From a virus (taxonomy: Duplodnaviria; Caudoviricetes): 47,021 nt of DNA. The translations under genes were made by a program, and so were the position numbers. The notes beneath the pieces are model-generated. The model saw only the letters and a program-made list of their open reading frames with translations, was not told the origin of the DNA and made no database searches. Below are positions 3,061-42,890 of this stretch, one piece after another. Position 1 is the stretch's first letter; each line of letters begins with the position of its first letter. The stretch spans positions 1 through 47,021 of the IMG/VR virus record IMGVR_UViG_3300037991_003683; one strand, 5' to 3'.

Positions 3061-6000
3061 TTATCTTCTACTTTTTAATAAACTTTTTCTCCTAACCTCT
3101 TCTTTTGTTTGTCTTCTTTGCTTTTTTCTTTTCTTAGTATTAGCTTTATTAATTCTAATTTTTTCTTTAGCCTCTATAACAGCTTCATTATCACCTAAAC
3201 CTAAACTCCAAGTTGTATAACCACTAAAGAACATTATTCTTTGGAACATTGTATAGTCTTTATCAAGAGCATTACGCATGTTTATACTTTTTTGATATAA
3301 CCTGTTTGCTGGAAAATTAGTTAAAGCTTCCGTGTAGTTTGTTACAGCTGACCACTGAGGATTATCAGCATCAAACGTTTCCATTTCACGAATAACATTT
3401 TCATTATAGTTAATAGTTTTTTCTGCATTAACTAGTTTTCTAGCCTTAATACCAACAACAGGTGAAAAGTTTAATAATTCCATTAATACAGCACTTTCAT
3501 CTTTGTTGTAATTAGGTTCTCTTTGTTCTTTCCATTTTATAACAGCATTTTTTAAAGTAGAAAGCACAGCGCCATATATACCAGAGCCTCTTAATATAGA
3601 ATCTATAGTACCTTGTATAACTCTTTCTCTTTTCTTTAATACTTGATCTTCATCTTCATCTTCATCAAACATAACCGCAAATAAAGCTGTTTGTAAGCTG
3701 TAGAATATAACATTTTGTATTGCGCCATAATATAGTATTTTAGATAAATTACCTAAGTTACTCTGTGTTTTAGTTGTATAAGGTGGTGATATTCTACCTT
3801 TACCAATATCTAAAGCAGCCTTTTTAATTATTCTGTTATATTGTGAAGTTATATTCTGAAAGTTTAAAACTAACTTACCTATCCAACTAGCTTGCTGCTG
3901 TGATGTCATGTCAGGCCTTGAAGACTGCTGAGTTGATTGAGTTAAATCTTGAAAGTCTGTAAAAGCTTTAGCTTCAGCTTCTTTTTGTTTTAAACCATCT
4001 TTTACATATTTGTTTACTCTATTTCTATAATAAGTAGCACCACCAGTAGCAATCGCGATATTATCACCAATTTGTGTAGGTAAAAAACCTAATTTTAACA
4101 ATTTACCTATAATTACTTTTGTAGGGTTTTTTGAACCTTGAACTGCTTGCGCAAGATCAGCACCGTTAATATCAGTACCAATACCACCTCTTCTTTGTTT
4201 TAACATGTCAGAATTAAATATAAACGCGAAGTCAGCCCAGTATTGTTTTTGATTAGCAAAAGCTTTAGCAGCAGCAAATATATTATTATCTGCAAAGTTT
4301 ATATAGTTAACAATAGACATTTGCTGCAATATAGCTGATCTAGTATTGAAAAACATAACAGCACCAACAGATCCGTTTAAATAATTCATTAGCTTATTTA
4401 CTGTTCCAGTTTGTCCTTTTGGTCTGTTAACACCTGTTTTTATTCTATGTAATATATCTTCTAAAGCACTTCTAAAATCAGCTCCATAACCAGCTTCTAT
4501 TTTATTTAAATTTTCTTCAGAAAATAATACATCTGCATTTTCGTTAAATTCAGTAAAGTATTCTGCTCTACCAACTCTACCAGTAGCATCTATTAAATCT
4601 GTTTTTATATTACCACCTTCCCAACCTTGACCTGGTTCTACGTATTTATCTTGTTTAGATATTGTGTTTATAGTTTCAGCATAATCTCTTAATTCAGAAT
4701 CATTCATTACTAATTCTACTAAATTAGCTTGATCAGTTTCACTTAAACCAGGTATATTGTAACCATGTTTATTCCATAAATAAACCCTTATAGCGTCTTC
4801 AAAAATAAAATCACCATCTGGAGTTTTTTTATTAAGCTTATCTTTAACCTCTTTAAGCTGTTTGTTTAACTGTTTATAATCATTTGCTATAGCTTGTTTA
4901 GCTGTATCTATTTCTCTATAAGCTCTATTTAAAGGTCTAACTAAAGCTTTTTCAAAAAAGTCTCTATGTTTATCGCCTTGTCTACCTGTACCCATAAAGT
5001 TGTATAATAAACCTACAAAATCTTCGTGTGATGGTGGTATAAAAAATCTAAACTTACCTTTACTAGCACCACGTTTTCTAGCTTTAATAGCTGAAAAACG
5101 TTTAATAGCTTCAATACCAGTAACATCTTCTAGTATATTATTAAACTGATCGTTCATACCTTTGCTAAAATTAATCTTAGCTTGTTGTACTTTACGTTTA
5201 ACATCAAATTGTTCTAGCATGTTATCTACAGCTTTTACATTTTGAATAGCATCATCTGCAAAATAAAAATCATTATAACCTTCAGCAACTTTACCAGCTA
5301 TCCAATTAGCTTTAGCTTCAGCTGTAGAATTAGCAAGGCCTGTAATATTTTTTAAAGGTATATTTAAACCATTAGCTTTTAAAAATTCAAATATAGCTGG
5401 TGCAGATTCAGCAGGTCTAGCTGTTAATATAAACATATTTTCAGGACCAAACTTACTTTGTAGTTTTAAAGCTTTATTAAACAATGGCGCTGTTTTACCT
5501 TCAACAACTTTAGTAAACTCTGAAAAATCAAACTCATAACCTAACTCAGTTAAACTTTCATAAGTACTAGCGTATTGTTCAGCATTTAAAGTTCCTGTAG
5601 TACCATCTGGTCTAGTAAATCTAATCAAAGACTTACTTGTTGCTAGTGTATCATCAAAATCTAAAACAGTAATACCTTTAACCTCATTGTTTGTTGATCG
5701 AGAAAAATTTATAGAATTATTTAAATTGTCAAACTGTGTAGACTTGCTAAAAGGAATACCAACAAATTCATAACCTTTTTTACTTATAATTTCTTTTACT
5801 TCAGCTAACCCCATTATAGTATTTAAATCACCAGTTGTTTTGTGTTTTTTGTTTATCACTTCCACAATATCATTAGGTAATAAAACAGTTTTAGAATTAT
5901 CTATTATTTTTTCAACTTGACTTAAGTTTTTATCAGTAGGATTATTAACATATTTATTAGCAGCTTTAAGAAGTTTGTTAACAGGCTCTCTATGCTCTAA

Positions 6001-9000
6001 CGTTGTTTTACCTTTATAGTTTTTAATATAACCAATAAGCGGTGCTATTTTTCTAACTGGCCCAACCATATCAACGGATCCTAAAGTTAATCTAGCCATT
6101 TTTACTTCTGGATTTAATTTTGATTTAAGTATATTTAAAAACCATTTTTTAGCTTGTTCAGCCTCTTGTTTACTAGTTTCTATAAAGCTAGCTGGGTTTT
6201 GTTTTATTTCTATTATTTGAATATAAGTATCTAAATCTTCATTGTTATAAGTAATTTTTGTACCTTTATCAAGTTCTCTAAAACTAAAACCTTTTACATT
6301 TAAAGGTTTTATAATCAATTTAAACACTTGCTCGTTCGTGGTTATAGTTTTACCTTCATATTTAACTTTAGCTGTTCTTAAAGATTTACTATTATTTATT
6401 AACCAGTCTTTTATTATATTAACTTTTTTAGAGTCAGTTGTTGCTTTTTTAACATCTTCTTGAAGTTCTTTTACAGCGTTGTTAAATGCAATTTGTTTTA
6501 TCTTAACCTCTGTAATAATTTTTATTTGACCTAAAATATTAGACAAATGGTCTTTAGTAAAAACACCATCTGATAAAATACCTAATATATTATTGCCACT
6601 TCTCATGTAGCTAGTTGCGGCCCAAGTGTTATTAACTATATCTGAAAAAGTTAAACCATACTGTATGTTATCTAAAAATATTTCAAAAAAATCTTTTTCT
6701 AAACTTTCTTCTGGTAAACTATTTATTATATCTCTAACAGCAATTCTACTTTTTCTAACCTGATCTCTTTTCCCATCCATAAGAGTTGTCCACTTGTTGT
6801 TGTTAGCTAATAGATTATAATTAATAAAACCATTAGAAAACTTTATACTTAGATCTTGTTGTTCACCATTTATTTTTAAAGTTTGCAACTTGCCTGAACG
6901 TATATCTTCAATTGAACTTGCTAAACTAGCATTAAGCGTAATTTCTATAGCAACTTTTTGCCCTTGTAAATCATAATATCTTTCATACGCAGGAGTTAAA
7001 AACTCTAAATTTGTTTTTGTAAAACCTTTTGCTAAACTAGGATCATTAAATTCTTTAAAAAATCTTTGGTTAACAGTACCTTCTACCTTTATAGTTTCTT
7101 TACCTAAATCAGAAATATAATCTTTGTAAGTATTTGTTCTTTCGTAGCTAGTTATATTATCAAGATGAATAGCGTCTTCACCAAAAGTATTTTTTACTAC
7201 TTCTTTTTTGTCTTTATAAACTCTTGTTTCTTTATCAGATAACCTATCACCATTTTCATAAATACTAGTTACAGAAATATCAATACTAGGCGCTTCTGTA
7301 AGCTCGAACTGTCTACCATGTAATTTACCATTTTTAGTATTAGTTTCACTAATTATTACTCCGTCAATATTTTTTACTATAACGCTACCAGTCTTGCTAT
7401 TACCAACTACTTTTTCATATTTTAATATTTTTGGCTCTACACCAGGTTTTTTAAGTTGAGCTTGAACAACTGGTCTAAAACCATCTTTTGCTTTTTTACC
7501 TTTAACTATAGGCGCCGCAGTAGGATTGTCCATTCTATCCCACCATTGCATCTGATTACCATCTCTAAAAGAAATTAGCTTACCATTTTGAAAGGCTATT
7601 TGGTGGCCATTACCTTTTTTGTTGTAGCTTTTCCACAGATTAAAAGATTTTTTTAAAGATTCTCCTGGAGTCATACCTGTAACAAAAAACCTACCCTCAC
7701 CATCAGTAATAGCTTTTATATCTGTGTATTGATTATTTCCTTTAATCCATTTGTTAGCTTCTTTTTGAGCTTCTTTAAGTGTATTATGTTCATCACCAAG
7801 TTTAACTCGAGTTGGTGCTATTCTAGCGCACAAGCACCAAGGATTTGCTTTTTTACCAAAATGAGTATCAATTACTTTTCTAGTATCAAGTTGTCCTTGT
7901 TTTGAGTCTTCAACATCATAAACTACCACACCGTTAGTGTACTCTGTTTTGTTAGTAAACGTCTTAACGTTATCTGGATTAGTTCTAACAGCTTTAACTT
8001 GATCTACGTACGTTTCTATTAAAACGTTAGGATTTTTAAAAGAGAATGGATCTAACTTCTTTAGAGCAGCTATTCTTTCAGCTTCTATAACCTTATAACC
8101 ATCTTCAGGTAATATTAAGTAACCATTAGCCATGTAATGCATAGCTAATTTTTCATATTTACTTTTTTTATTATTAGGTATATCTTTACCATCTATAAAA
8201 TCAAATACGCTTTGCACAGCGTTTTTTCTTTGCTCTTCAGTAAGATCAGGTCTTCTTTTAGTTAGTTGTTTTTCGTATTGATCTCTATGAGCTTTTGAAA
8301 ACTTAATTTGAGAATAAACGTTTACATCGCCAATACCATTCATTGCATCTAAAATATCAACATCGGCTGTTGTTTTAGAAAACTTAACACCAACCTCTCT
8401 ACCAATAGCAGCGCCTAACTCAGCCGCACTTAATGAGCTAGCGTTCATATTAGCAATTCTATCTTGAACTTCAATAGATTGTTCAGCCTCCATTATAGCA
8501 TCAGTAACTAAACTATTTACCATACGCATTACAATACCATCTTTTCTAGTACCTTTTAAACCTTGTCTAGCGCCAGTAACAGGATTGATACCCGGTTGAT
8601 CTGCAAAACTAACGAGTTCAGTTTCTGTAGGCATTATTTTTTGATATAGATTTACAGAGTAAGCACCTTTACCTGTTTTTTTATCTCTAGTAATCTTGTT
8701 TAAAGCGTCAGGTGGTAATTGTTGTTTGTTAACAGCATCTTGTACTTGATCTTTAGATGTTAGTGTTGCTACGAATTTTGTAAAAATTCTATCAACCTCA
8801 GGTATCTTTTTTTCCATCTGCACTAAGTCAGCTGTAGATATATTTTCAAAAATAACTTCTCTATATTTTTTCAACTGAGATATGTAAATATCTTTTGTGC
8901 CTCTAGCTACTTTTGCTTCTGACACACCGTAAGTTATAAAGTTTTTAATTTGTTTAAACAAAGGACTATTAAGATTACTGTACTCTTTTTTCATTTTAGT

Positions 9001-12000
9001 AGCTATAGCTTTAGCTCGTAATTGAGCATCGGTAATATTTTGAGTAGCACCATAAGCTATTATTAAACTTTTCTTAACATTGTCTAGTACTTGGTTATAT
9101 ATTTTACTACCAGTATCAAAGCCTAAATCTCTTCTAAACTTAGAATATTTTTGTTTTTTTGTTTTACTTTTCTTAGCTTGACCTTCAATAGATAAATCTT
9201 CTGTTTCAAAAGCTAATGTGGTTGGATCTATATCGGTATCTTCTATATCAAAAGTTGTTTCACCCTCTTTAGTTCTTTTAGCGGCATCTATTCTTAATGT
9301 TTTACCTTCTTTTTCACCTTCTATAGCTAAGTCTCTAGCAGCATCTAGTTTCGCAAATTGAGTATCAGACATTATACGCTCACCAATAGTTACAGCTTCT
9401 TTACTACCGGTTTTTCTTTTTGCCTGTGGATTATAACCCATTAATCTATCAGAAACCTTTTGTATTGTTTGTTTAGTTTTATCTTTACTCATACCAAGGC
9501 TTTTGATGTAGTTGTTTACAGCACCGCCAGCTTCAGTTATAGAATCAAATAACTCATTAAACTCGTCACTTGTTCTAAACTCATCTTGAGTATATTCTTT
9601 GTTTTCTGCTTTTAACCTGTTTTTTAATTTTTGCTCTATTTTATTTACCACTCCAACAGCCGCGGATCTTGAAAACTTTGCTTTTTTAGTTTCTTCTTCA
9701 GGACCTAAAATTAAAGTTTGGTTTCTAGTACTACGCTGAAAGCTATCAATATATCCAAGCACGTCTTTAGTGTTGTCAAGCTTAAAAAACATACTACCTT
9801 TTTTAAAATATTTCTTAGAAAGTTGATTAAACATTAGTTTAAAAGAAAGTAAAGCATCTCTAGAGTTTTCGCTTAATATGCCAGCGTTTTTAAGTTCACC
9901 AGCTATAGCTAAAAGCTCCATTAAATCTCCTTCGCTGTAACTAGCAAGTCTTTTCTTATAGGTGTTATAATCTTTTTCTTTTATTTTACCTTGCTTGTAA
10001 AGATTATCAACTTCTGTTTTAATACCTTCAACAGCTATTTTTGAAGATTCAATAACTTCATTGTCTTCAATTAAACCAGTCTTAATATCGTTTATGTGTT
10101 GTAGTTCATGAATAGGAGAATAAGCAGCTATAGACTTTTCAAAAGCAGTTTCAGCATTATTTATATTACGTATAATATTAGCTTCTACAACAATAGCTTC
10201 GTTACCTAAAAAACTAGCATTAGAACCTTCTCTAAAGCCTTTTAAGTACATGTTTTTTTGCTGTTTAGCGGTTACAATTGTTCCGTTTTTTAATTTTTTG
10301 TCTTTTATTTTACCAGACTTTATTGCTTTGTCTAAATACGCTTCTAAGTCAGTTAAATCAAGAGTTCCATCTTCATTTATCTTACCAAACTGTTGTACTT
10401 TACCTAATCCTTTAACAATATTAAGAGCACCTTGATACTTTCCAAAATAAAACTCTGTGTCTATTTTTGCTATATCTTCTTTTAAAGTGTCTTCAATAAT
10501 CTTTTTTCTTCTTTCACTAGGTTTGTTTCTTAAATCATCTCTTTTTGCGTTTATTTCTTTAATCTCATTAACAAGCTTTTCTTTTTTATTTTTTACATAT
10601 TTACTACCTGTCTTTTCATAAGCGCTAGTTGCACCTAGGTTTTGAATTTCTTTAAGCTTATCTCTTTTCTTTTGGTTAAGCTCAAACATTTGATTAACTT
10701 CAACAGCTGTCATGTTAGCAACTTCAGCCATAGTATAAGAGTCTACAAGAGCAGCTTCTCTTATTAATCTGTTATTATCAAACTCTAATTGGTTTCTTTG
10801 ATCGTTATCTAAAAGTGTAAATCCAGATTCTTGATCTGCTTGTAACGTTGCATTAATTTCAATTATTTGATCTCTTCTTGCTCTATTTTCTCTTATTTCA
10901 CTTTGAGTATTAATTTCACTTCTAATGGTGTTATATACGTTCATGCTTACAGAAGGACCCTGAATTGCAAGAGTTGAAAACATTACATTAGCACTAAAGT
11001 TTTTATCAATACCGTCTAATAAATTTTTGTTTTGACCTAAAACAGTCATATCAACCAAATTGTGACCAACTTGAGTAGCAAACTCTTCAAAATACTCAGT
11101 TCCAACACCTTTACCTACCTGCCATGAGGCTTTCATAGTGTTAGCAAAATTTAACCTACCATTAGTAGGAGATACTCTGTTTAAGTTTTTTAAAATACGC
11201 ATAGTACCCAAACGTTCAGCATACATCGCAATACCACCGTACATAACTGAAGAAAATGCTTTTTGTAATTCCGTAGCATCTAAAGCTCCTTGGTAATAAT
11301 CTATTTGATTTAGTATTTCAAGTTTTTCACCTTGAGTAACAGCAAGTGCTAAAGATTTTTGTAAATCTTTTATCATTTTAGGTGCATTTTTTTGATCAAT
11401 CTCCATGTGAGTATATTTTGCACCTGCTTCAAGTCCAAAAAAAGTACCACTTAAAATTTTAGTTGATCTTGCTACATTTGCACCTAATTTAATAGCCCCT
11501 CCATAAGTTAATGCAGAACCAATACTAAAAGCATTGTTTGCTAAAGCCTGCGAAGCCCATTGTCCAATGTTATCTAAACCAACATCGTCAAAGTCAATAT
11601 TTAAAGGAAGAGAAACTTGCTTGTACTCTCTTAAACTTTCGTTATAATCAATAACAGCCGCATGTTGTTTTTTAGCAAAATTAGAAAATATATCTTGATT
11701 ACCAGTAATTCTGTCTAAAACCCAAGCAAAAGCCTTAGAGGTACCAGATAAAAGAGATGTCATTTCAGCAATACCAGTTTCGAAACTTAAACTAGTTCTG
11801 TTTGCCCACCCATAATCTAAAGCCAATGCTTTTGATATAGTAGTAATATCACTTACCTTATCAAAATTATCTACAAGTTTATCAAAATTAGATTGTAAAA
11901 TTTCTGCTGATTTAGATATTTCTTTTATGTTGATGTTTTTTGATAATAATTCACTTCTATATTCAGCTGATAAATTATCACCTTGCTGTATTAAGTTGTT

Positions 12001-13068
12001 GTATTCTTGTATTTTTTCTTTAGAAGAATACTCATCAACTTCTCCAAGCGCATCAATAGAAGATTTTATTCTAGAAAACAAACCTTCATACCTGCTGTTT
12101 ATATTAATGTAATCATTGTACTTTTCTTCCCAGTCTCTTGATTTTTGCTCGTACTCCGAAAACTTTGTGTTAAAGTATTTTTCTAAAACTTTTTCAGCTT
12201 TACTACCTTGCTGTTTTATTTTCATGGCAGCATAATTTGTACCTGTAAAACCTTTAGCTCTTAAATCTTTTACCGCGGCTTGTGCTTTTCTATCAGCTTC
12301 TAAAGCCTCTGTATACATCTGTAAGTAATCTCCATCTTCTGGGTCAAAAATATTAAATACACCTTCTTGCGCTGATCTTCTACTTTCCGCAACCATTTCT
12401 TTATCTCCAGTAAAAAAATCACCTACATCAAGTCTACTAGTGTATTGTTCAATTTCTTCTTGTCTAGTTGAACGAATAGCTTCTTTAACAACACTTTCTT
12501 CTACTAAATTTGAATCAAAAACTTCAGTTTCTTTATAACGTAAATATTCTTTGTATTTTTTATCTCCAAAAAAACTTTTTAAATCTTCTTCTTCTGATTT
12601 GGCATATCTAAATCCACCTCCAGCTAAAATACCAGCTTCGCTTTTAACCATTTTTCTTGATCTATTAAAACTTTCTAAATTAAAATACTTTTCAGCTAAT
12701 TTGTTTTTAACTTTAAAATGGTTTCTTGTTACACCATTAGAAATAGCAAGTAAAGTTGCATTAAGTTCTTCAGATGTATTTGGTAAATCCAAAGTGCCAA
12801 CGTCCAAGCCTGACTCCGTAACGACTGGCTCTACGCCTGGAGTCGCATCCGCAGAGCCTTTTGTTTTTCCCAATAAGTTAGTTGTCCACTCTTCTTGATT
12901 AGAAGCTTTTAAACTGTAATTTTCTTTTAAATAATTATATACATTAGTTTGTATATTTTGATCTTGAATAAAACTATTTTTCCACTCTTCAAAATCTTTT
13001 GCTTTAAGATTAAGGTTAGAATCTTTGTTTAGTGTATTCCAAATATTATTTAATATTTCTTCGTTCAT
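3061..13068 (-). CDS. giant virion ejection / polyvalent protein (zincin HExxH, HAD phosphatase, other modules)
   Basis: 3335 aa, last of three internal-protein-type genes after the tail module. HELQH at aa ~987 with a downstream E. HAD motifs DFDDT / ILTAR / K / FADD at aa ~2465-2615. Hydrophobic helices near both ends. Confidence 0.75.
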   Translation of the reverse strand: MNEEILNNIWNTLNKDSNLNLKAKDFEEWKNSFIQDQNIQTNVYNYLKENYSLKASNQEEWTTNLLGKTKGSADATPGVEPVVTESGLDVGTLDLPNTSEELNATLLAISNGVTRNHFKVKNKLAEKYFNLESFNRSRKMVKSEAGILAGGGFRYAKSEEEDLKSFFGDKKYKEYLRYKETEVFDSNLVEESVVKEAIRSTRQEEIEQYTSRLDVGDFFTGDKEMVAESRRSAQEGVFNIFDPEDGDYLQMYTEALEADRKAQAAVKDLRAKGFTGTNYAAMKIKQQGSKAEKVLEKYFNTKFSEYEQKSRDWEEKYNDYININSRYEGLFSRIKSSIDALGEVDEYSSKEKIQEYNNLIQQGDNLSAEYRSELLSKNINIKEISKSAEILQSNFDKLVDNFDKVSDITTISKALALDYGWANRTSLSFETGIAEMTSLLSGTSKAFAWVLDRITGNQDIFSNFAKKQHAAVIDYNESLREYKQVSLPLNIDFDDVGLDNIGQWASQALANNAFSIGSALTYGGAIKLGANVARSTKILSGTFFGLEAGAKYTHMEIDQKNAPKMIKDLQKSLALAVTQGEKLEILNQIDYYQGALDATELQKAFSSVMYGGIAMYAERLGTMRILKNLNRVSPTNGRLNFANTMKASWQVGKGVGTEYFEEFATQVGHNLVDMTVLGQNKNLLDGIDKNFSANVMFSTLAIQGPSVSMNVYNTIRSEINTQSEIRENRARRDQIIEINATLQADQESGFTLLDNDQRNQLEFDNNRLIREAALVDSYTMAEVANMTAVEVNQMFELNQKKRDKLKEIQNLGATSAYEKTGSKYVKNKKEKLVNEIKEINAKRDDLRNKPSERRKKIIEDTLKEDIAKIDTEFYFGKYQGALNIVKGLGKVQQFGKINEDGTLDLTDLEAYLDKAIKSGKIKDKKLKNGTIVTAKQQKNMYLKGFREGSNASFLGNEAIVVEANIIRNINNAETAFEKSIAAYSPIHELQHINDIKTGLIEDNEVIESSKIAVEGIKTEVDNLYKQGKIKEKDYNTYKKRLASYSEGDLMELLAIAGELKNAGILSENSRDALLSFKLMFNQLSKKYFKKGSMFFKLDNTKDVLGYIDSFQRSTRNQTLILGPEEETKKAKFSRSAAVGVVNKIEQKLKNRLKAENKEYTQDEFRTSDEFNELFDSITEAGGAVNNYIKSLGMSKDKTKQTIQKVSDRLMGYNPQAKRKTGSKEAVTIGERIMSDTQFAKLDAARDLAIEGEKEGKTLRIDAAKRTKEGETTFDIEDTDIDPTTLAFETEDLSIEGQAKKSKTKKQKYSKFRRDLGFDTGSKIYNQVLDNVKKSLIIAYGATQNITDAQLRAKAIATKMKKEYSNLNSPLFKQIKNFITYGVSEAKVARGTKDIYISQLKKYREVIFENISTADLVQMEKKIPEVDRIFTKFVATLTSKDQVQDAVNKQQLPPDALNKITRDKKTGKGAYSVNLYQKIMPTETELVSFADQPGINPVTGARQGLKGTRKDGIVMRMVNSLVTDAIMEAEQSIEVQDRIANMNASSLSAAELGAAIGREVGVKFSKTTADVDILDAMNGIGDVNVYSQIKFSKAHRDQYEKQLTKRRPDLTEEQRKNAVQSVFDFIDGKDIPNNKKSKYEKLAMHYMANGYLILPEDGYKVIEAERIAALKKLDPFSFKNPNVLIETYVDQVKAVRTNPDNVKTFTNKTEYTNGVVVYDVEDSKQGQLDTRKVIDTHFGKKANPWCLCARIAPTRVKLGDEHNTLKEAQKEANKWIKGNNQYTDIKAITDGEGRFFVTGMTPGESLKKSFNLWKSYNKKGNGHQIAFQNGKLISFRDGNQMQWWDRMDNPTAAPIVKGKKAKDGFRPVVQAQLKKPGVEPKILKYEKVVGNSKTGSVIVKNIDGVIISETNTKNGKLHGRQFELTEAPSIDISVTSIYENGDRLSDKETRVYKDKKEVVKNTFGEDAIHLDNITSYERTNTYKDYISDLGKETIKVEGTVNQRFFKEFNDPSLAKGFTKTNLEFLTPAYERYYDLQGQKVAIEITLNASLASSIEDIRSGKLQTLKINGEQQDLSIKFSNGFINYNLLANNNKWTTLMDGKRDQVRKSRIAVRDIINSLPEESLEKDFFEIFLDNIQYGLTFSDIVNNTWAATSYMRSGNNILGILSDGVFTKDHLSNILGQIKIITEVKIKQIAFNNAVKELQEDVKKATTDSKKVNIIKDWLINNSKSLRTAKVKYEGKTITTNEQVFKLIIKPLNVKGFSFRELDKGTKITYNNEDLDTYIQIIEIKQNPASFIETSKQEAEQAKKWFLNILKSKLNPEVKMARLTLGSVDMVGPVRKIAPLIGYIKNYKGKTTLEHREPVNKLLKAANKYVNNPTDKNLSQVEKIIDNSKTVLLPNDIVEVINKKHKTTGDLNTIMGLAEVKEIISKKGYEFVGIPFSKSTQFDNLNNSINFSRSTNNEVKGITVLDFDDTLATSKSLIRFTRPDGTTGTLNAEQYASTYESLTELGYEFDFSEFTKVVEGKTAPLFNKALKLQSKFGPENMFILTARPAESAPAIFEFLKANGLNIPLKNITGLANSTAEAKANWIAGKVAEGYNDFYFADDAIQNVKAVDNMLEQFDVKRKVQQAKINFSKGMNDQFNNILEDVTGIEAIKRFSAIKARKRGASKGKFRFFIPPSHEDFVGLLYNFMGTGRQGDKHRDFFEKALVRPLNRAYREIDTAKQAIANDYKQLNKQLKEVKDKLNKKTPDGDFIFEDAIRVYLWNKHGYNIPGLSETDQANLVELVMNDSELRDYAETINTISKQDKYVEPGQGWEGGNIKTDLIDATGRVGRAEYFTEFNENADVLFSEENLNKIEAGYGADFRSALEDILHRIKTGVNRPKGQTGTVNKLMNYLNGSVGAVMFFNTRSAILQQMSIVNYINFADNNIFAAAKAFANQKQYWADFAFIFNSDMLKQRRGGIGTDINGADLAQAVQGSKNPTKVIIGKLLKLGFLPTQIGDNIAIATGGATYYRNRVNKYVKDGLKQKEAEAKAFTDFQDLTQSTQQSSRPDMTSQQQASWIGKLVLNFQNITSQYNRIIKKAALDIGKGRISPPYTTKTQSNLGNLSKILYYGAIQNVIFYSLQTALFAVMFDEDEDEDQVLKKRERVIQGTIDSILRGSGIYGAVLSTLKNAVIKWKEQREPNYNKDESAVLMELLNFSPVVGIKARKLVNAEKTINYNENVIREMETFDADNPQWSAVTNYTEALTNFPANRLYQKSINMRNALDKDYTMFQRIMFFSGYTTWSLGLGDNEAVIEAKEKIRINKANTKKRKKQRRQTKEEVRRKSLLKSRR

Positions 13069-13082
13069 ATTTGTATTTTATT

Positions 13083-14630
13083 TTAACCTAAATTATTTTC
13101 AGATCTACCATACATTTGGTCTAAAAACTGTTCTTTTGTCCATGTTTGTGTTTCTTCAGAAAAACCACCTTCACCATCGTTTAATGTTTCATCGTATTTT
13201 TTTATCACTTTATTTTTACCTTCACCACTACCGTAAATACCTGTGATAACACCTTGTTTATCCATTCTATATCTATTTCCAAAATAATCAAAGAAAACAC
13301 CACCAGGAACCATTCTTTCAACTTGTTTATCTACATCTAAAGTTTGATTTTTAAAGTAACCTATATCTCTATACGTTCCCCGTGATACGTCCCAAACACC
13401 TCTTGCGCCACCAACCTTAGTAGCTCTTTGTTCTTCTTCTTTAGTTTCATATTGTTCTGGGAATTCTAATTTGTTGTAATATGAATATCTATTATCATAT
13501 TTTTGTTGTGCAAAATTTGTAAAATAACCTGCTAATAAATCTCTAGATCTTTCTAAGCTAAAGTTTTCGTTATCTACATCTGTTAAAACATCAATCATTT
13601 GCTTGTAGTTATTTTCAAAAACTTCTCTATCCGCGTCTGAAAGACCTTCTATATCTTTACTGTTTATTACACCATCTTTAAATTTATCCATGTTTTCAAA
13701 CATGTCTTTAAACGTTACGTCCATTGTATCAATAGCAATGTTCATGTCATCTAGCAAGTTATTTCTAAAAGATTTTTGATGTACATTTTGTAATCTTCTA
13801 AAAGCTAAGTTTGTAAAATCTTCTTTTGTTTGTACTTGATTAGAAAATATATTGTAAAATTCTTGCTCATCAAAATTTTTTTGGTTTTGTCTACCGTGCT
13901 CTTTAGCCTGCTCACCAGCAGAACTTATTGTTTTAAGTATAACAGCGTCAGCTTTTAAGTCAGTTTGTGGTATATTTTTTCTTAACTGCTCCATGTTATA
14001 ACTAACATCACCAGTAGGTAGATCGCCATCCATTAAATGATTAATTACTCTAAATGTTAGTTTATCATCAACAAAAGAAACAGATACATTATCATCTTTA
14101 TCTATATTATCCACGTTGAACATTCTTTTCATAGCTATTATATCTCCTTTTATAGCTCCATTGTTCCACATTTTAGTGTCTTGACCTAATAAACCAAGTG
14201 TTGATCTAACTTCTATAGCTTGGTTTATAACTCTTTTAAGTTCACCACTTATTCTCATTCTAGCTCTTTCGTTTTCAACCGTATCTCTTTTACCATAAGT
14301 GTTTACAGCTTCAAACTCATCTTGCAATTCTCTAACCTTTGCATCTACAGCATTAACAATTTCTTGTGGCATAGTCTGTTCTTGTTCAAAAAGCAACTTA
14401 TAGTTTTTATTCATTATATCTTTAAAACTATCTAATTGTTTTTCTCTACCAATACTAATTTTTTCTTCTTTTTCTTTAAAACCTTTAACAGCATCTTCTA
14501 CAATACCTAAATAAGCTTTTGTACTTTCAACATTGCTTTCATATAAAGGTTTTAGGTTTGGAACTTGAGTTCCAGCTCTACTCATTGACTCTTGAAGAGA
14601 CGCTTTTACTAAAGTACTATCTGCTGCCAT
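13083..14630 (-). CDS. putative internal virion (ejection) protein
   Basis: 515-aa helical, charged protein between the small and giant ejection-type genes (T7 gp14/15/16-like synteny; inference). Confidence 0.55.
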   Translation of the reverse strand: MAADSTLVKASLQESMSRAGTQVPNLKPLYESNVESTKAYLGIVEDAVKGFKEKEEKISIGREKQLDSFKDIMNKNYKLLFEQEQTMPQEIVNAVDAKVRELQDEFEAVNTYGKRDTVENERARMRISGELKRVINQAIEVRSTLGLLGQDTKMWNNGAIKGDIIAMKRMFNVDNIDKDDNVSVSFVDDKLTFRVINHLMDGDLPTGDVSYNMEQLRKNIPQTDLKADAVILKTISSAGEQAKEHGRQNQKNFDEQEFYNIFSNQVQTKEDFTNLAFRRLQNVHQKSFRNNLLDDMNIAIDTMDVTFKDMFENMDKFKDGVINSKDIEGLSDADREVFENNYKQMIDVLTDVDNENFSLERSRDLLAGYFTNFAQQKYDNRYSYYNKLEFPEQYETKEEEQRATKVGGARGVWDVSRGTYRDIGYFKNQTLDVDKQVERMVPGGVFFDYFGNRYRMDKQGVITGIYGSGEGKNKVIKKYDETLNDGEGGFSEETQTWTKEQFLDQMYGRSENNLG

Positions 14631-17871: not shown

Positions 17872-20826
17872 TTAAATATTTATTGTAAAGTTACTTTCAG
17901 TATCTGACGTAGAACTACCACAGCTGTTTCCATCTCCATTTTCACAGTTAGCTATTATTTCAAAAGTGTAAGAGCTTTCATCTAAGAACCAATTTGTACC
18001 ATTGTTATAATAAACGTAGCTAGCAACACCATTGCTTATAGAGGTAGGTACAAAGTTATTGATGGTTAAGGAGATTCCACTAGCATCCGTTACAGTGATA
18101 GTATAAGAGGCGGCTGTAGAAACTGCTGCAAAGCTAAACGTGATTTGAGTAGCATAAACATTACCACTAGAGTTAGTTGCCGAAGCATTAACAGCTAAAA
18201 AGCTTGTTTCAAACGTAGGTGTGTCGCAAGTATAACAGCAACAGTCTGTAGCATTAGTACTTCCAGTAGCAGTACAATCTTGGTTAAACGCAGAATTATA
18301 ATTAGTTGCTGTAGGGGACATACAACCTGGATTACTATCAACACAACTATTGTCTATATGAAAATCTAAGTTTGGATCGTAATTTATGTGACTACTATCA
18401 CCGTTTTTACAACCAGCAGTATAAACGTGAGTCTCTTGAACGTTTGTTGTAATCGTGTTGTTTTGAGAAGCATTATCTATAGTGCCTGTCCAAGTGCTAC
18501 TAATTGTAACTGTTAAATCACCACTATTAAGACCATAAGCACCGTTGTTATTTATATACGGCGTCCAGTCACCTTGAAATAGAGGAAGCGGTAAATTTTC
18601 TGTACCACTAGGATTACCCATGTTTGTTTGGTTCCAACTAGTATAAATTGTTCCAGAATAAACCTGCGTATTAGTTCCAGTACCAAGAGACACAACGTTA
18701 GTTTGAACATCACTATAAGGCGTGTTTAGATAATCAACTGTAAGCTGTAGTATTGTATAACGAATAGGCGATGAACTAGACGTTACTGTAGGTGTTAAAT
18801 AGGTTGATGGAGTACCAGTATAAACACAGCAACTATTATCTCCAGTACCATCATTACAAGGAACGTTAGCGTTTGGATCGTAATTGTCCGCGGCAAACTG
18901 ATTTCCGTCAGGATTCATTGTGGCGTCCATACAACCAGTGTAAATACACTGAGTATTATCTTCAAGATCATAAGTACCACTGTTATCAGCGTTTGTATCT
19001 AAACACCCAACACTGAAAGTTTCAGTTTGAGAAATAGAGCAAGTCCCATTGTTAGAATTAACAGTAAATATTACAGTTATAGAAGTTTGCCCTTGAGTCC
19101 AAGAACTAACTAAAGATGGATTTATATTACTAAATATAGTATTATTAATAGTGCTAAAACCACCTAAATTAGCGTCTGCAAATATAGCGTTATTGTTGTT
19201 GTCAGATACTATTAAACCTAAAGTAAAATCGTTTGGAAAACCACCAGGGTTAATATTACCGCTAAACGGCGTGTTACCAATACCAAAGCTAACCTGAATA
19301 CTATCATTACCTGTTAAGATTACATTAGGTCCAAATGGGCAGTTGTATGGTAAACAACTTCCGTCATCTGTGTTGGCTAAAGGATCGTAGTTTGACGCAG
19401 CGTAAGTTCCATTGTAATTTAACGTAGAGTCTGTACAGCCTAAAACTACTGCTATACAACTACCATCATCAACATTTGCGTTTGGATCGTAGTTAAACGC
19501 GTTTGAATCAGTACAACCATTTACAACAATAGTTGAGCAACTTCCATCATCAGCAACCCAAGGGTTTCCTCCACTAGCTACAGCAACTAAATTAACAGGA
19601 TCCCAACAATCTCCACAGTATTCTAAATAAGAAGGATCTGTACAACCAATACATATATCGTAAACACAACTTCCATCATCTACTGTAGCTGCCGGATTAT
19701 AATTACAAGCACCCCAAGCTCCTATATTATTGTTAACGCCAGTATTATCTGTACAACCAGGTATTGGTGTTGATGTTATTGTTGATGTAGCGGTTGGACC
19801 AGATATTGGACCTGTTATGTCATAGCTAATTAAAGTAGCACCTTGTGTTGAAACGCAAAGGTTAAATATCATAAAGTTGTAAGTACCTGTAGCTAAACCT
19901 GTAACAGTATACGTTTCTATATTATTTCCAGAAGGTAATATTGGCCCAGCAATTGGAGAGTTGTTAGCATAAATATAATATTCGCTAGCCGTTGGTGAAA
20001 CTGGCCATTGTAAAGTAACTGTTCCATTGTTTAAATTTGCATCAGATGTAGTATTTGATAACACCATAAGACTTGTTGGTGGTTCACAGTAAACGCAATT
20101 AGAAGTACAGCTAGCATCAGAAAATGGTGCGTCATAATTAACAGCGTTTGTGTCACCACAATAGTAGCAAGACCCATCGTCTTGAGTTGCTGTAGCATCA
20201 TAATTACATGCAGTTGAATCCATACATCCACCGATATAAGTACAAGACCCATCATCAACAGCAGTACCGTTTAGATAAGAAAAACTACCGTTATTACTAT
20301 CAACAGTAGAACCCATAAAGCTATAGTTTTCTGCTAAAGGATCAGTACATCCAGAATAAAGACAAGATCCATCATCTGTGTTTATAGCATCGTCAGGACT
20401 GTTAGGTGAGAAGTAATTACTTGCATTTGGATCTGTACAGCCATATATAAATGGAATACACATACAGTTAACGTAGCCACAAAGAGTTCCATCGCTCAAG
20501 TAACTAGAACCAAAGTTTGCTAAAGGATCGTAATTAAAGTTACCAGAAATAGTACAGCCATATATAGCTGGAATACAACTTCCATCATCCACAGTAGCAA
20601 TAGGATTATAGTTTAATGTTGACGTTCCAGATAATTCAGTAGTCCAGTCAGCAAGAGGTCCTTGCGTACATCCGTACCAAACACAACTACCATCATCTGT
20701 AGTAGCAGAGCTATTATAATTGTCAGAAGTACTATCTGTACAACCATAAATATGAGGAAGGCAACTACCATCATCATTTGTTGCTGAGTCATTATAATTG
20801 TACATGGTTGGATCTGTACAACCATA
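17872..20826 (-). repeat. ~16 GC(T/M)D-x-NY-x-DDGSC protein repeats interleaved with FN3/Ig-like domains
   Basis: Counted in the translation, e.g. YGCTDPTMYNYNDSATNDDGSC, GGCMDSTACNYDATATQDDGSC, NGCTDSNAFNYDPNANVDDGSC. Confidence 0.9.
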
Positions 20827-23800
20827 AACAATACTACTAACTACGCTAGATACAACGCCTATACCTTGTATACTAAAATCTTCTGTATCGTAATTTCCAG
20901 ATATATCACCGTCAACCGTATAAGTAACGTCATTACCCGTAACATAACCAAACCATTTGCCTTCTTTTTTAATAAATTCAGTTATACCGCCTTGTTCTAA
21001 GTTAGTAACAATATCTTGAACATACCAACCTTTTTCTTCTGTTAAATTAAAGTACTCACCATCTACTAGCGTTACACCATTTTCATCTTTTGAAGTAACT
21101 TTAGCTTGAGAGCCTTCGTAGTTTATTGTTTTAAAAGATTTAACACTACCAGGTATTTCATTAAATACAACCTCTAAAGTTGATGGTACAAGGTTTTCGC
21201 TATAAAAAGTATTTCTGTTAGCGGTTTCATCGTGGTGTTTCCAAGCTGAACCATCTTTAAACGTATAATATTCATTAGCACAACTAATAGCGTTTTCTGG
21301 TGTAAACGATTTAAAACTAACCCAACCTTTTACATCTTCTTTAAATGTAACTGTTTTATCAATAACACCACCTTTTATAGTAACATTGTATTCGTCTTTT
21401 CTATCATCGTAACTACCAATAATATTATCACCAAGTTTTAGATTATCTCTAAACCAATCTTTCATACCAAAAAATGATATTGGTGTTAAACCGTCCTTTG
21501 ATAATCTCAATATAGTTCCTCTAACTTTATCAGAAAAGTAAGCTCTATAAGATTCAGCAGCAAAAGATTCTGGATTTTTAGATATACCATAATCACCAGC
21601 ATAAGGTATAGCTTGACCTAAAACTTTATTTGTAGCTGTTAACTGTGTGTTACCATCAGCGTTAAATACAGCGTCTTTATTTGCTAGTATTTTTAAAACT
21701 CTATCTTCACAAAGAGTAATTAAATCACCATCAGCAGTAGATCTAGAATATAGTTTTTGAATACTACCGTAAGTTGGATTAATATCTTTTGTTATTTTTT
21801 CAGCTGTTATAAATTGGTTTAAATTGTTTGTATTGCTATTTGGATTATATATACCAGAGTATATTAAACCATTTGTTCTTTCTTCTTCTTCGTAATCACC
21901 TATTATAACGCTAGACGCTTTAACACCATTTACTATGTATGGTTTATTATAAGTATCTCCTATTCTATTAGACTCAACACCATTATTAAAAGACCAACAG
22001 TTAAACCAATTTAATCCAATTTTACCAAAATTTAATGGGTTAAATGTTAATCCATAAACAACGCTACCAGAAGATAACGAGCCAGTAATTGTTACTTCTA
22101 AATAACTGCCATCGTCTCTAACGAACTTAATCTCAGGGTACATTTGCTCAATTGCTTGAAAATCTAAAGAGCTTAAAGAAGTAGATAGAATAACTGAGTT
22201 TAAACCTTGCCATTGCGTAACAAAAATACCACTTGGTATTGCCGCTTGTAATTCTTGAGCAAATTCTAATGTAGCTCCAATAGGTATATATAACTCTCTA
22301 TTGTTTACGTTTATTCTTGTAGGTATACTTCCAGTAGCCTCGTAGTATATATCTAAATCTACATCTTCTTTAGGTTCTGTCTCAAATATAGCTGGATTAT
22401 TACTTATTAGATTTGGTAAGTCAGAATCAAACTGAGAAACAAACTGTATTGTTGCTGTAGTACTACTTGAAGAATCTACACCAGAAGCGTAAACACTAGC
22501 AAAAGCAGGATTGTCTGGAAGAGTTTCTGACCATCCGTTTTGAGCAACTGTAATATCTGGATTTGGTAAAGAAAGCTGATCAACTTCGTATTGTATTCTA
22601 TAAGTCTTTCTTCTATTGTAATTAGCGTGCATTTGATCTTCTTGCGAGTAATAATTACTAGCAACAAAATAATCGTTGTATGTTACAAATTGATTTGGAC
22701 AATCACAACACTCATCATACTGCCCATCGTTACACCCTTGAAAATCACAGTTAGAGTTGTAAGTTGGACAAGGAACAGTACAATTCTCCCTTTCAGGAGC
22801 AGGCGTAGTTGGTACTCCTCTAAAATTAAATAAACGTCTTTTTTGAACGCCAAGTATTCTATAAATAGTAGGATCTCCCTCGATTTTAAAACGCTCATTA
22901 ACACCGAGTCTACTGACAATTTGTTCTTCTTGATCTGTGAAAGAGTTAGTAGGATTATTACCATCATCTTCACCTACAGTAAAATTTGTTTGACTACCAC
23001 TTGTGTTTGGACCTATAACAGAATAAGCAAAATCAAAATAATGATTACCACCTGAATCATGAACACCTTTCATACCTAAAACAGCTCTTGACAAACCATT
23101 ACCAGTATTTTCTGAACCAGTAGTTGGCGCTGCTTCTACGCAATTTCCAGTACCATTAAAAGTATAATTAATAGTACTAGTAGTATCACAAGTTTCTATA
23201 ACGCTATTACCTATATTTTGAGTATCGTTAATAGCATTAATATCTCTACTTGTCCCTGGCATAACACTAGCAAATGAAGCTCCATCAATAAACCATTTAG
23301 AAGTTAATTGAGTACCGCCAAACTTTAAAAGTGTAGCCCAATCACTAGCTGATCTTGTTGAGCTACTGTTGTTTATAGGTGGATTATTACCTGTTGATGT
23401 TGGTGAAGTTGGATAGCTATTAAGAGGTTGGTAAAGTTGATAAAAAGACAATGGATCACTTTGATTTAAAGAACTGTCTTTAATTCTATGAAATGTGGTT
23501 GAAGAGGTTATTGTCCAATTTCTTACGGTTGTAACATAGTTAACTAGCTTTTCATCAACAATATTATCTCTAAGTATTTTAACAAAAAATCTACCATCAA
23601 ATTGTGGTAAGTTTTCAATTGATTTTTTCCAAAAACGAACTCTTACAAAATCATTTCCTACATTTAAATCTTCAGTTATAAATCCATCTTCTATAGCTAT
23701 TGGTCTATGTATTTTTATTTCGTAGTGAGTTGAATTACTAAAATCTTGATCAGGATCATCTAACAATAATTGTGTTATTCTATATCTACCACTAGTACCA

Positions 23801-36469: not shown

Positions 36470-36744
36470 TACTTAGATCTACTTTCTGCGAATCCTTTAA
36501 AAGTTTTTTCCTTTGCCTCTTCAGGTGCTTTGCCCTCGAGTATGTTTTCTTCTTCTTGAATTCTGTTAAGTATTTCAAATGCGTCAAATATAGCTAGTTT
36601 TTTAGTAGCTGCGGCGTTTTTTAATCTATCAGCTGATATATCATCGTCTGAATCAACAATAGCTTCTTTAGCTACTTTAATTAACTCTTCAACTGCTTTG
36701 TGCCCAGCTTGGATTATATTCTTCTTCGTTTCCTTGATATTCAT
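36469..36744 (-). CDS. putative terminase small subunit
   Basis: ATG at 36744 (91 aa) is preferred over 36792. Helical protein whose stop overlaps the terL start. Function inferred from position only. Confidence 0.45.
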   Translation of the reverse strand: MNIKETKKNIIQAGHKAVEELIKVAKEAIVDSDDDISADRLKNAAATKKLAIFDAFEILNRIQEEENILEGKAPEEAKEKTFKGFAESRSK

Positions 36745-37279
36745 ATTTAATTGTAATAAAATTAGATAAAACTCTAAATAGTCTTTCACCATCTACTATA
36801 AACTCATATTCACTGTTCGGTCTAAAGCCAACTAAATCACCAACTTTAACCGTACCGTCAGAATACTTAACTATACCTTGCAAAGGTTTTTCAGATTCAG
36901 TATTAAACTTATCTGTAGCTTTTAAAGGTGTTACAAAACAATATCCTTTTGGTGTTATCCACTTATTTTTTCTTTTGTATAAAAATATTTGATCATTATT
37001 TATAAGATAAGTATTTTCATCAAAATAAGCTTTACTATTTTTTTCTACACCTTTTACGTTGTGCCATCTGCGAAAAACATTATGATGCACTATAACGGTA
37101 TCTCCTGGCTTTATATCTGTATTGCCAATAATTGGAGTTGATATAACTTCTGCTTCTCTATTAACAAACTGATGATTATATATCTCTGTATTGAGAATTA
37201 ACTCTCCACCATCTAGCTTTTTAGTATTATTATATCTTTCTCCTTTTGGCTTTACAACAAAGTTGTAAACGCTTTTCAT
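36689..37279 (-). CDS. tandem GroES-like (Cpn10-fold) protein
   Basis: Two GroES-like halves: NFVVKP...GELIL...AEVISTP...IKPGDTVIV and GYCFVTP...GIVKY...VKVGDLVGF...EFIVDGERLFRV. Confidence 0.6.
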   Translation of the reverse strand: MKSVYNFVVKPKGERYNNTKKLDGGELILNTEIYNHQFVNREAEVISTPIIGNTDIKPGDTVIVHHNVFRRWHNVKGVEKNSKAYFDENTYLINNDQIFLYKRKNKWITPKGYCFVTPLKATDKFNTESEKPLQGIVKYSDGTVKVGDLVGFRPNSEYEFIVDGERLFRVLSNFITIKYEYQGNEEEYNPSWAQSS

Positions 37280-41080: not shown

Positions 41081-41338
41081 TTAATCTACTAGAACAACGT
41101 CACCATCACGAATAACTCTATAAAGAGTATCTTTCCATGATATGTCGTGTCCAGCGTGTTTATCGTAATATATCGTGTCTCCATCTTTTAATCCTTCAAC
41201 TAAATTGCCACACGATATTATTTTTGCTTTTATATAACGGTTATCTACATCTGTATCATCCGTCATTATAAGACCAGCAACCTTTTTAGGTTCTGTCTTT
41301 ATTTTATCTACTATTATATATCTATTTATTGCTTTCAT
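41081..41338 (-). CDS. groES: co-chaperonin GroES
   Basis: MKAINRYIIV...AGLIM...AKIISCG...LKDGDTIYY...VIRDGDVVLV; overlaps the end of groEL. Confidence 0.85.
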   Translation of the reverse strand: MKAINRYIIVDKIKTEPKKVAGLIMTDDTDVDNRYIKAKIISCGNLVEGLKDGDTIYYDKHAGHDISWKDTLYRVIRDGDVVLVD

Positions 41339-42890
41339 TTAATCTCATGTTTGAAATTACACAATCTGCAGATATAATAGTTGTAACTACACTTACTGCG
41401 TTTTTAAGAGCTGACTTAGTTACAAGTACAGGATCTATAATACCAGCTGATATCATAGTAGCTCTTTCACCAGTTATTACATCAATACCGTAACCTTCAT
41501 GATCCTCATATCCATCCATCATTGTTATACCAGCATTATCAAGTACGGTATAAAAAGGAGCCATAATAGCTTTTAGTAATATGTTTTCCCCAACGTTTTT
41601 AGCTATAATTCTTTGTGAGGCATTTAACAAAGCTACACCACCACCTGGTACTATACCTTCTTTTAAAGCCGCTTTTGTAGCATAAATAGCATCTTCTACT
41701 CTATCCTTCTTTTCTTTAAGCTCAACTTTAGAGTTAGCACCAACTTTTACTACGCCTACGCTACCTGATAACATTGCTAATCTTTCTCTATGTTTCTTTT
41801 GTATAAACGGATTTTTCTCCCATTTATCTATAGTTTTCTTAACACTATCTATTCTTTCATCCATATCTTCTTCTGGAGTATCTATAGTTAAAACAGTGTT
41901 TTTACTATCAGTAATCGATGTGTATGCCTCACCTAAGCAATCAATGTCTATTAAATCAAGATCATCACCTAACTGCTCGTTTATTACTTTAGCACCAACT
42001 AAAAACGCAAGGTCTGCTACAGTATCTTCTTTAGTAGGACCAAAGCCTGGTAAATCAATTATGTTTACCTTTATATTACCTTTTACCTTGTTCATAAGAA
42101 GAGCAGCCTTAACTTGTTGATCAACTGGAGCTACTATTAATAAAGAGCGTTTATTTTTTATTACATGCTCTAATATTTTTTGTATTCTTCTTATATTAGG
42201 TATTTCTGAAGATACTATTAATACTAATGGGTTATCAAGCTCTGCTACTTGCTTGTCCTTATCAGTAACAAAATGTGGAGATGTGAGTCCTGAATCTACC
42301 TGCACGCCGTCAACTACTTCGACGTATGTTTCTTCAGTTGGTGACTCTTCCATTAATACCACACCATCTTTACCTACTTTAGTATAAGCTTCCGCTATAA
42401 TCTTTCCTAGTTCCGCATCATTGTTACAACTTATTGAACTAACAGATTCGAGCATATCGCCTTCGATCTTGACAGAAATCTTATTTAGGTAATCGTTTAC
42501 CTTTTTAAGACCGGATTTAATTCCGTCTTTTATTTCTCTTGTATTAGCTTCGGTTTTGCTAACTTCTTTTAAAAGTGCTTCAGCAAGGACAGTAGATGTT
42601 GTTGTACCGTCACCTGCTTCTCTCACTGTATTTCTAGCAGCTTCTTTAATAAGGGTAGCACCCATATTTTCAACCGGGTCAAATAAGACAACTGATTCTG
42701 CTACAGTTACTCCGTCTTTTGTTATGACCGGGTTACCTCTAGCGTCTTCGTAAATTACACACTTACCAGATGCACCTAAGGTTGATTTTACTGCTTTTGC
42801 TAGCTTTTCAACGCCAGCTACTATTTTGTTATTAGCGTTATCGCCAAAGTTTACGTCTTTGACAATCTCGCTTGGTTGATTGTATTCCAT
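41322..42890 (-). CDS. groEL: chaperonin GroEL
   Basis: ITKDGVTVA, AGDGTTT, KEKKDRVEDA..ATKAA..EGIVPGGG and GIIDP motifs. Confidence 0.97.
   Translation of the reverse strand: MEYNQPSEIVKDVNFGDNANNKIVAGVEKLAKAVKSTLGASGKCVIYEDARGNPVITKDGVTVAESVVLFDPVENMGATLIKEAARNTVREAGDGTTTSTVLAEALLKEVSKTEANTREIKDGIKSGLKKVNDYLNKISVKIEGDMLESVSSISCNNDAELGKIIAEAYTKVGKDGVVLMEESPTEETYVEVVDGVQVDSGLTSPHFVTDKDKQVAELDNPLVLIVSSEIPNIRRIQKILEHVIKNKRSLLIVAPVDQQVKAALLMNKVKGNIKVNIIDLPGFGPTKEDTVADLAFLVGAKVINEQLGDDLDLIDIDCLGEAYTSITDSKNTVLTIDTPEEDMDERIDSVKKTIDKWEKNPFIQKKHRERLAMLSGSVGVVKVGANSKVELKEKKDRVEDAIYATKAALKEGIVPGGGVALLNASQRIIAKNVGENILLKAIMAPFYTVLDNAGITMMDGYEDHEGYGIDVITGERATMISAGIIDPVLVTKSALKNAVSVVTTIISADCVISNMRLNESNK

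Follow-up and report, generated by a model that had tools for sequence, protein, structure and literature searches.

Introduction

Does a giant phage protein that joins a predicted zincin to several unrelated domains cut itself into separate parts, and at which sites? The question is raised by an open reading frame in the window, i.e. the whole stretch of 47,021 nucleotides analysed here (IMG/VR record IMGVR_UViG_3300037991_003683, Caudoviricetes). A preliminary description of this DNA had proposed that the encoded protein is ejected and cleaves itself at recurring x-F-S-[KR] motifs downstream of its zincin to release host-takeover effectors, and that the segments between these sites are exchangeable cassettes.

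For phage polyvalent proteins with a zincin-like metallopeptidase (MPTase), autoproteolytic release was proposed in 2017 and likened to viral polyproteins (PMC5512222). The accessible text of that paper names no site motif, with 'cleavage site' occurring once, in the references, and 'linker' never; it cites P1 DdrB as processed and N4 vRNAP as unprocessed. Cleavage terms are absent from the accessible text of the crassvirus atlas (PMC10172136), and our literature search, with most subscription journals and supplements outside its scope, found no paper that names a repeated junction motif.

Results

A predicted zincin in a giant protein of a podophage virion-gene block

The window holds a podophage virion-gene block with terminase, portal, structural genes, a muzzle-like gene and GroEL/GroES. 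Relatives of the terminase were found in an uncultured spring phage (64%), Flavobacterium Elemovirus (46%) and Cellulophaga phages (38%), and the host is therefore probably a member of the Bacteroidota. By synteny, the position of the giant ORF (Table 1) matches that of Elemovirus gp18, phi38:1 gp101 and phi13:2 gp127, all annotated as structural proteins, and its product contains 2 cysteines in 3335 aa as compared with 65 in the muzzle-like protein. From the gene order, the syntenic annotations and the scarcity of cysteine, we infer that the giant protein is packaged in the virion and ejected. Its N-terminal region weakly matched aa 568-822 of Elemovirus gp18 in a two-protein comparison (23%, E 9e-5). 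The syntenic proteins of phi38:1 and phi13:2 are shorter and contain no HExxH.

Several neighbouring features were also recorded. A cysteine-free ORF of 515 aa without a family match lies directly upstream of the giant gene (window 13083-14630) and probably encodes a second ejection protein. The muzzle-like protein (window 17872-26403; 2843 aa; crAss_MUZ_C, E 8e-6) has roughly double the length of the one in Elemovirus. The phage also encodes GroEL- and GroES-like proteins, in genes that adjoin the virion block (window 41322-42890 and 36689-37279), and the record MW202828 (L101:741-12320) encodes a syntenic protein of 3859 aa with two HExxH domains.

Sequence and AF2 model together predict a zincin with an HExxH helix, a later Glu as the third zinc ligand and a small beta sheet. 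HELQH, found where the preliminary description had placed it, is the sole HExxH in the giant protein. The best rows of the structural (VIA) comparison were two gluzincins, lethal factor (Z 5.1, rmsd 4.0, 134 aligned) and PPEP (Z 4.9), which likewise have HExxH and a downstream Glu; these Z values are under the confidence level of the tool, at 11-13% identity, and are uninformative on the substrate. A Foldseek search with the zincin model returned nothing at E <= 0.001. The predicted complex of zincin, Zn and a J4 peptide scored 0.02 and counts neither way.

Table 1. Features of the giant ORF, with positions in the window.
Feature	Position	Strand	Remarks
Giant ORF	3061..13068	-	3335 aa, 2 Cys; closes the virion-structure gene block
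N-terminal region, aa 1-879	10432..13068	-	predicted ejection/packaging part; tag enrichment absent
Zincin domain, aa 880-1120	9709..10431	-	AF2 mean pLDDT 85.5
HELQH (H987, E988, H991)	10096..10110	-	both H invariant (69/69); E in at least 90%
E1051, predicted third zinc ligand	9916..9918	-	invariant (69/69)
J1 AKFSR	9667..9681	-	end of zincin linker; swap point; coil, pLDDT 52-63
Module C, aa 1135-1560	8389..9666	-	no Pfam or PDB support
QKYSK, from aa 1306	9139..9153	-	within module C; S invariant; no swap point
J2 VKFSK, from aa 1561	8374..8388	-	end of module C; swap point
Module E, aa 1566-2074	6847..8373	-	WCLC motif; mobile cassette; contains IKFSK (from aa 1588) at 8293-8307
Junction IKFSN, from aa 2075	6832..6846	-	end of module E; VKFSN in P0004-P0006
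Module F, aa 2080-2437	5758..6831	-	
Junction IPFSK, from aa 2438	5743..5757	-	end of module F; coil, pLDDT below 50
INFSR, from aa 2453	5698..5712	-	second tag, 15 aa further; HAD leader; predicted helix end
HAD phosphatase domain (DFDDT)	5176..5685	-	in 70/72 homologues
J4 INFSK, from aa 2632	5161..5175	-	HAD/tail joint; coil; insertion point of module E in L029, L032
Conserved helical C-terminal tail, ~700 aa	3064..5160	-	in 72/72 (loci were found by the tail)

A short tag is enriched downstream of the zincin

The ORF translation confirmed every motif of the preliminary description, with one correction of coordinates: AKFSR occupies aa 1130-1134 (nt 9667-9681), of which the nt 9667-9678 given for it cover KFSR only. 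An additional upstream copy, GLFSR at aa 329, had been overlooked. The giant protein contains seven FS[KR], six of them downstream of the zincin, as compared with 1.34 expected from shuffles (0/5000 reached 7). KFS ranks just 15th among its over-represented tripeptides, and within the giant protein alone the motif is a pattern picked post hoc.

This doubt was removed by the enrichment in homologues. The first set was collected via the C-terminal tail and comprised 80 loci, reduced by removal of 8 near-duplicates to 73 proteins (the window and 72 loci); proteins that lack HExxH or are truncated at the 5' end were excluded from the counts. FS[KR] occurred 174 times after the zincin (29.9 expected), 15 times before it (17.8 expected) and 20 times in the tail (20.5 expected), and the control motifs SF[KR] and [KR]SF were at 0.7-0.8 times the expectation. 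The second set was collected independently with a zincin profile, which finds 1622 clusters at 50% identity; of 150 listed proteins, 104 passed on length, and in 91 the zincin was less than 70% identical to earlier ones. These 91 proteins gave 169 FS[KR] after the zincin as compared with 37.4 expected, and 11 as compared with 17.1 before it. As both sets include homologous sites, their counts do not represent independent events. No excess was seen in the 14 other ORFs of the window (0 vs 2.2) or in other ORFs of the loci (28 vs 36.8). The motif is thus enriched over chance in two homologue sets, and the enrichment is restricted to the part after the zincin.

In addition, tags are often paired at one joint, 10-27 residues apart, in the window (5698-5757 and 8293-8388) as well as in L003, L015 and L046.

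Modules are exchanged at the tags

The proposal that the segments between sites are exchangeable was borne out, as homologues gain, lose or move whole modules at AKFSR, VKFSK, IKFSN, IPFSK and INFSK. Beyond aa 1000, 59% of 126 BLAST alignment ends fell within 12 aa of a motif as compared with 8.6% at random, in a count that the HAD start dominates and in which shared motifs lengthen alignments slightly. Taken singly, 54/62 homologues exceeded their own null, 28 of them at p < 0.05. The relatives are mosaic, with zincin, HAD and three modules independently distributed.

The idea that all the motifs mark domain boundaries held for the five swap points above and failed for QKYSK, for IKFSK at aa 1588 and probably for INFSR. 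QKYSK and IKFSK-1588 have 1/126 and 2/126 alignment ends within 12 aa, respectively, and both lie inside cassettes common to homologues. At the position of INFSR, relatives often have xSR without F, and at that of IPFSK, FS[KR] is present in 5/6 relatives; IPFSK is the likelier joint of the two. A further cluster of alignment ends at about aa 1240-1265 has no tag and represents divergent yet alignable versions of one domain.

At J1, the S is invariant in 9/9 members of the zincin clade, and the modules after it differ irrespective of zincin phylogeny. J1 is degenerate in the second set, reading FS[KR] in only 11/91 proteins, and S[KR][SATQE] is present in 57/91 as compared with 14-15 in control windows. 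At the end of module C, F is invariant (21/21) and S is kept in at least 90%, with unrelated sequence thereafter. Module E is carried by 5/72 homologues, two of them (L029 and L032) having it elsewhere, between HAD and tail, where the tag upstream of it is degenerate; hydrophobic-K-F-S-[KRN] closes it in 6/6 carriers. P0002, P0003 and P0007 are without module E, and one tag connects C to F. At J4, F-S is kept in 62/69.

The structure predictions agree with a location of motifs in linkers: J1, IPFSK and INFSK are predicted as coil, J1 within a low-confidence linker beyond the zincin, and INFSR lies at a predicted helix end. The HAD domain is indeed bracketed by INFSR and INFSK, with its first strand at about aa 2465 and its last ending at 2629. 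At J1 and J4, both models start a helix 1-4 residues past the Ser of the tag, as would be expected if the chain stayed uncut, like the intact N4 vRNAP (PMC13434306, accessible text), and the tag were a peptide docking to the zincin or to another tag copy, or a folding element (Ser N-cap and hydrophobic staple) starting the first helix of each module. A capping motif, however, should not be missing from N-terminal regions (15 vs 17.8 expected), nor should it exchange K for E at every joint at once, and the full catalytic set is conserved. We therefore regard an uncut chain as improbable.

The tag appears to be kept as a protein signal and changes in concert in some relatives

The coincidence of swap points with the motif could alternatively reflect a DNA recombination scar, with cassettes joined at micro-homology and no function in the protein. 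Within genes, identical codons were slightly above background for Ser (51 vs 41.7 of 156) and Lys/Arg (79 vs 65.8 of 96), as such a scar would predict; on the other hand, the two Ser codon families are used about equally (TCN 69, AGY 75), identical Phe codons are at background (126 vs 127.2), and the eight sites of the window gene share no longer DNA identity. This origin was rejected on the codon evidence, which largely refutes it, and is very improbable. Because both Ser families are used and Phe codons are at background, the sequences indicate that the tag is kept as protein and not as DNA.

The residue after the tag Ser varies among proteins. With the HAD-internal DFSEF left out, proteins with E at J4 had 13 E and 7 K/R sites elsewhere, and those with K/R at J4 had 15 E and 143 K/R. 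Five proteins (L016, L051, L025, L035 and L043) have xSE at 4-5 joints, L097, fetched afterwards via the L016 zincin, has FSE at 4/4 joints, and L090 and L041 use SAG. At one homologous module end, the residue after FS was the same as in the J4 tag of the protein in 14/17 cases (6.4 expected), and in 11/14 as compared with 6.6 after lineages were collapsed (p 0.0009). In the second set, where J1 was callable in 29/104 proteins, 36/89 downstream sites matched the J1 residue of their protein as compared with 28.2 expected (p 0.002). Of four pairwise tests of joint co-variation, J3-J4 alone was significant (J1-J4, J1-J3 and J2-J4, p 0.07-0.08), and in L008, L036, L040 and L089 the E is confined to J4.

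Agreement between the tag and the zincin tree was weak by parsimony on FastTree trees (8 changes as compared with 9.5, p 0.07). When zincin residues were compared with use of the E tag, the top-ranked position was the one preceding E1051, with the letters A, R, R, K, L, gap and D in only 3-4 lineages. Since in some relatives the tag changes together at all joints, the favoured reading is that an enzyme from the same gene recognises it.

An alternative is that another factor, such as a host protease, the phage GroEL/GroES or the packaging/ejection apparatus, cuts or binds the tags, and that the zincin targets the envelope or a host protein. The genome does encode GroEL/GroES, and in the accessible text of a phi24B preprint the metallopeptidase of a polyvalent protein is suggested to degrade the envelope. 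E988 is replaced by D (HDxxH) in L025, L037 and L043, all with the third Glu kept; two of them, L025 and L043, retain tags, which fits a separate factor, and in L037 J4 has been lost. The relatives without the canonical motif therefore do not amount to a clean test. Against a separate factor, the tags are confined to the part downstream of the zincin, they switch between otherwise close phages (a module 81% identical, FSE vs FSAG), and Elemovirus-type proteins with a distant zincin appear to use a different tag (see below). We consider a separate factor unlikely, and recognition by the enzyme of the same gene is retained as the favoured reading.

Cargo of the giant protein

The HAD domain carries a DxD motif on a Rossmannoid fold, with DFD near-invariant, and its model matched HAD phosphatases with a Foldseek probability of 0.99 (E 5e-3 and weaker). 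A HAD phosphatase fold is thus supported by the model and is the sole cargo fold identified. Four relatives (L023, L029, L092 and L052) have a P-loop kinase of about 200 aa inserted in the HAD cap; the insertion has no flanking tags and matches Pfam AAA_33/Zeta in L023, L029 and L052. This fusion resembles T4 polynucleotide kinase-phosphatase, and the phosphatase of T4 Pnkp is listed at row 46 among the HAD structural matches. By analogy, the pair may act in the repair of nucleic-acid ends.

Modules C, E, F and the tail were without identification in Pfam, PHROG, PDB-sequence and Atlas searches, the tail had no match among 50,697 phage records, and 54/58 variable regions had no Pfam match. The host-takeover effectors of the preliminary description are thus putative. 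The N-terminal part of module C looks by eye like sigma region 2; no match to sigma-70 region 2 was obtained by Pfam (0/27 members), PDB profile or Atlas. Sequence searches of Pfam, PHROG and PDB likewise gave no RNA polymerase domain of the kind in Crassvirales virion cargo.

A candidate tag in a cultured relative

Flavobacterium Elemovirus gp18 (NC_055854; L100:23852-34936) occupies the same gene position and is a structural protein by annotation, with 3694 aa and no Cys. Its HExxH is HEIFH at 1543, and its zincin scores 42 bits against the profile of this family. Its modules swap at defined points, as in the giant protein; it differs in a candidate R-x-[QP] tag instead of FS[KR], and in cargo and tail that are not detectably related. 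Among 8 gp18-related loci, alignments restart exactly at RQQK 2079 (L105, L106), start at 1684 just past the R of RFQA (L109-L111) and stop close to RNQK (L107). These few sequences suggest that R-x-[QP] is the tag of the Elemovirus lineage; by count, R-x-Q is not enriched in gp18 (5 vs 2.4). No processing study of gp18 was among the literature found. The L110 protein has an Elemovirus cargo module between two FQL peptides (aa 1519 and 1939), possibly a further tag.

Discussion

The junction code is real and well supported, within a known class of proteins, and cleavage at it is proposed. We think it probable that the giant protein is cut by its own predicted zincin at x-[F/L/M/A/E]-S-[K/R] tags, and that its modules are released after packaging and ejection. 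A single packaging/ejection part (aa 1-879) would carry the cargo through the tail thanks to one long chain. The zincin (H987, E988, H991 and E1051) would then fold, bind zinc and cut J1 first, perhaps in cis, before the stricter FS[KR] sites. The predicted products would be ~128 kDa (N-terminal part and zincin), 48 kDa (C), 55-58 kDa (E), 41 kDa (F), 20-21 kDa (HAD) and 80 kDa (tail). As a guess that leans only slightly one way, cutting would occur in the host after refolding rather than in the head. A cassette would be retained only if flanked by a tag readable by the resident protease, and swaps would for that reason appear at tags.

Self-processing is supported by the asymmetric enrichment in two sets, the swaps at tags, the concerted change of the tag and the invariant metal ligands, as well as by the location of J1, IPFSK and INFSK in coil and the HAD-internal kinase insertion without tags. 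Against it are the degenerate J1, the tags kept in the HDxxH relatives L025 and L043, the tagless ends at aa 1240-1265, the weak tree signal, the four proteins with E only at J4, the modest fold match and the intact N4 vRNAP.

Like the phage-type polyvalent proteins, as described in the accessible text of PMC5512222, the protein is giant and joins unrelated domains with a zincin of the HExxH and Glu type. It differs from the catalogued ones in giving no Pfam or PHROG match, LPD and other Pfam polyvalent domains included. P1 DdrB and DarA, known here by description only (PMC5512222, accessible text), are virion proteins reported to be proteolytically processed, as is proposed here, and DdrB has an MPTase; their processing, however, precedes packaging, and the description has no repeated tag. 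N4 vRNAP is similar to the giant protein as an ejection protein of ~3500 aa with an HExxH domain, but it carries an RNA polymerase and was found intact; the accessible text of this 2026 study reports that no vRNAP degradation was observed (PMC13434306), a counter-example to cleavage.

That phage polyvalent proteins process themselves has been hypothesised since 2017, with the sites unnamed, and the candidate sites provide exact predicted fragments and point mutants. The cultured Elemovirus offers a real virion that makes the self-processing idea testable at the bench. On a wider view, which we hold tentatively, a widespread group of Bacteroidota podophages may inject a 'magazine' polyprotein in which the protease and the cut-site code (FSK, FSE, SAG or R-x-Q) co-evolve as lock and key, so that any cassette bearing the code could be loaded and several uncharacterised effectors freed at entry. 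If self-processing is true, the tags would delimit many unannotated injected effector domains, and the zincin family may supply site-specific proteases with differing short recognition codes.
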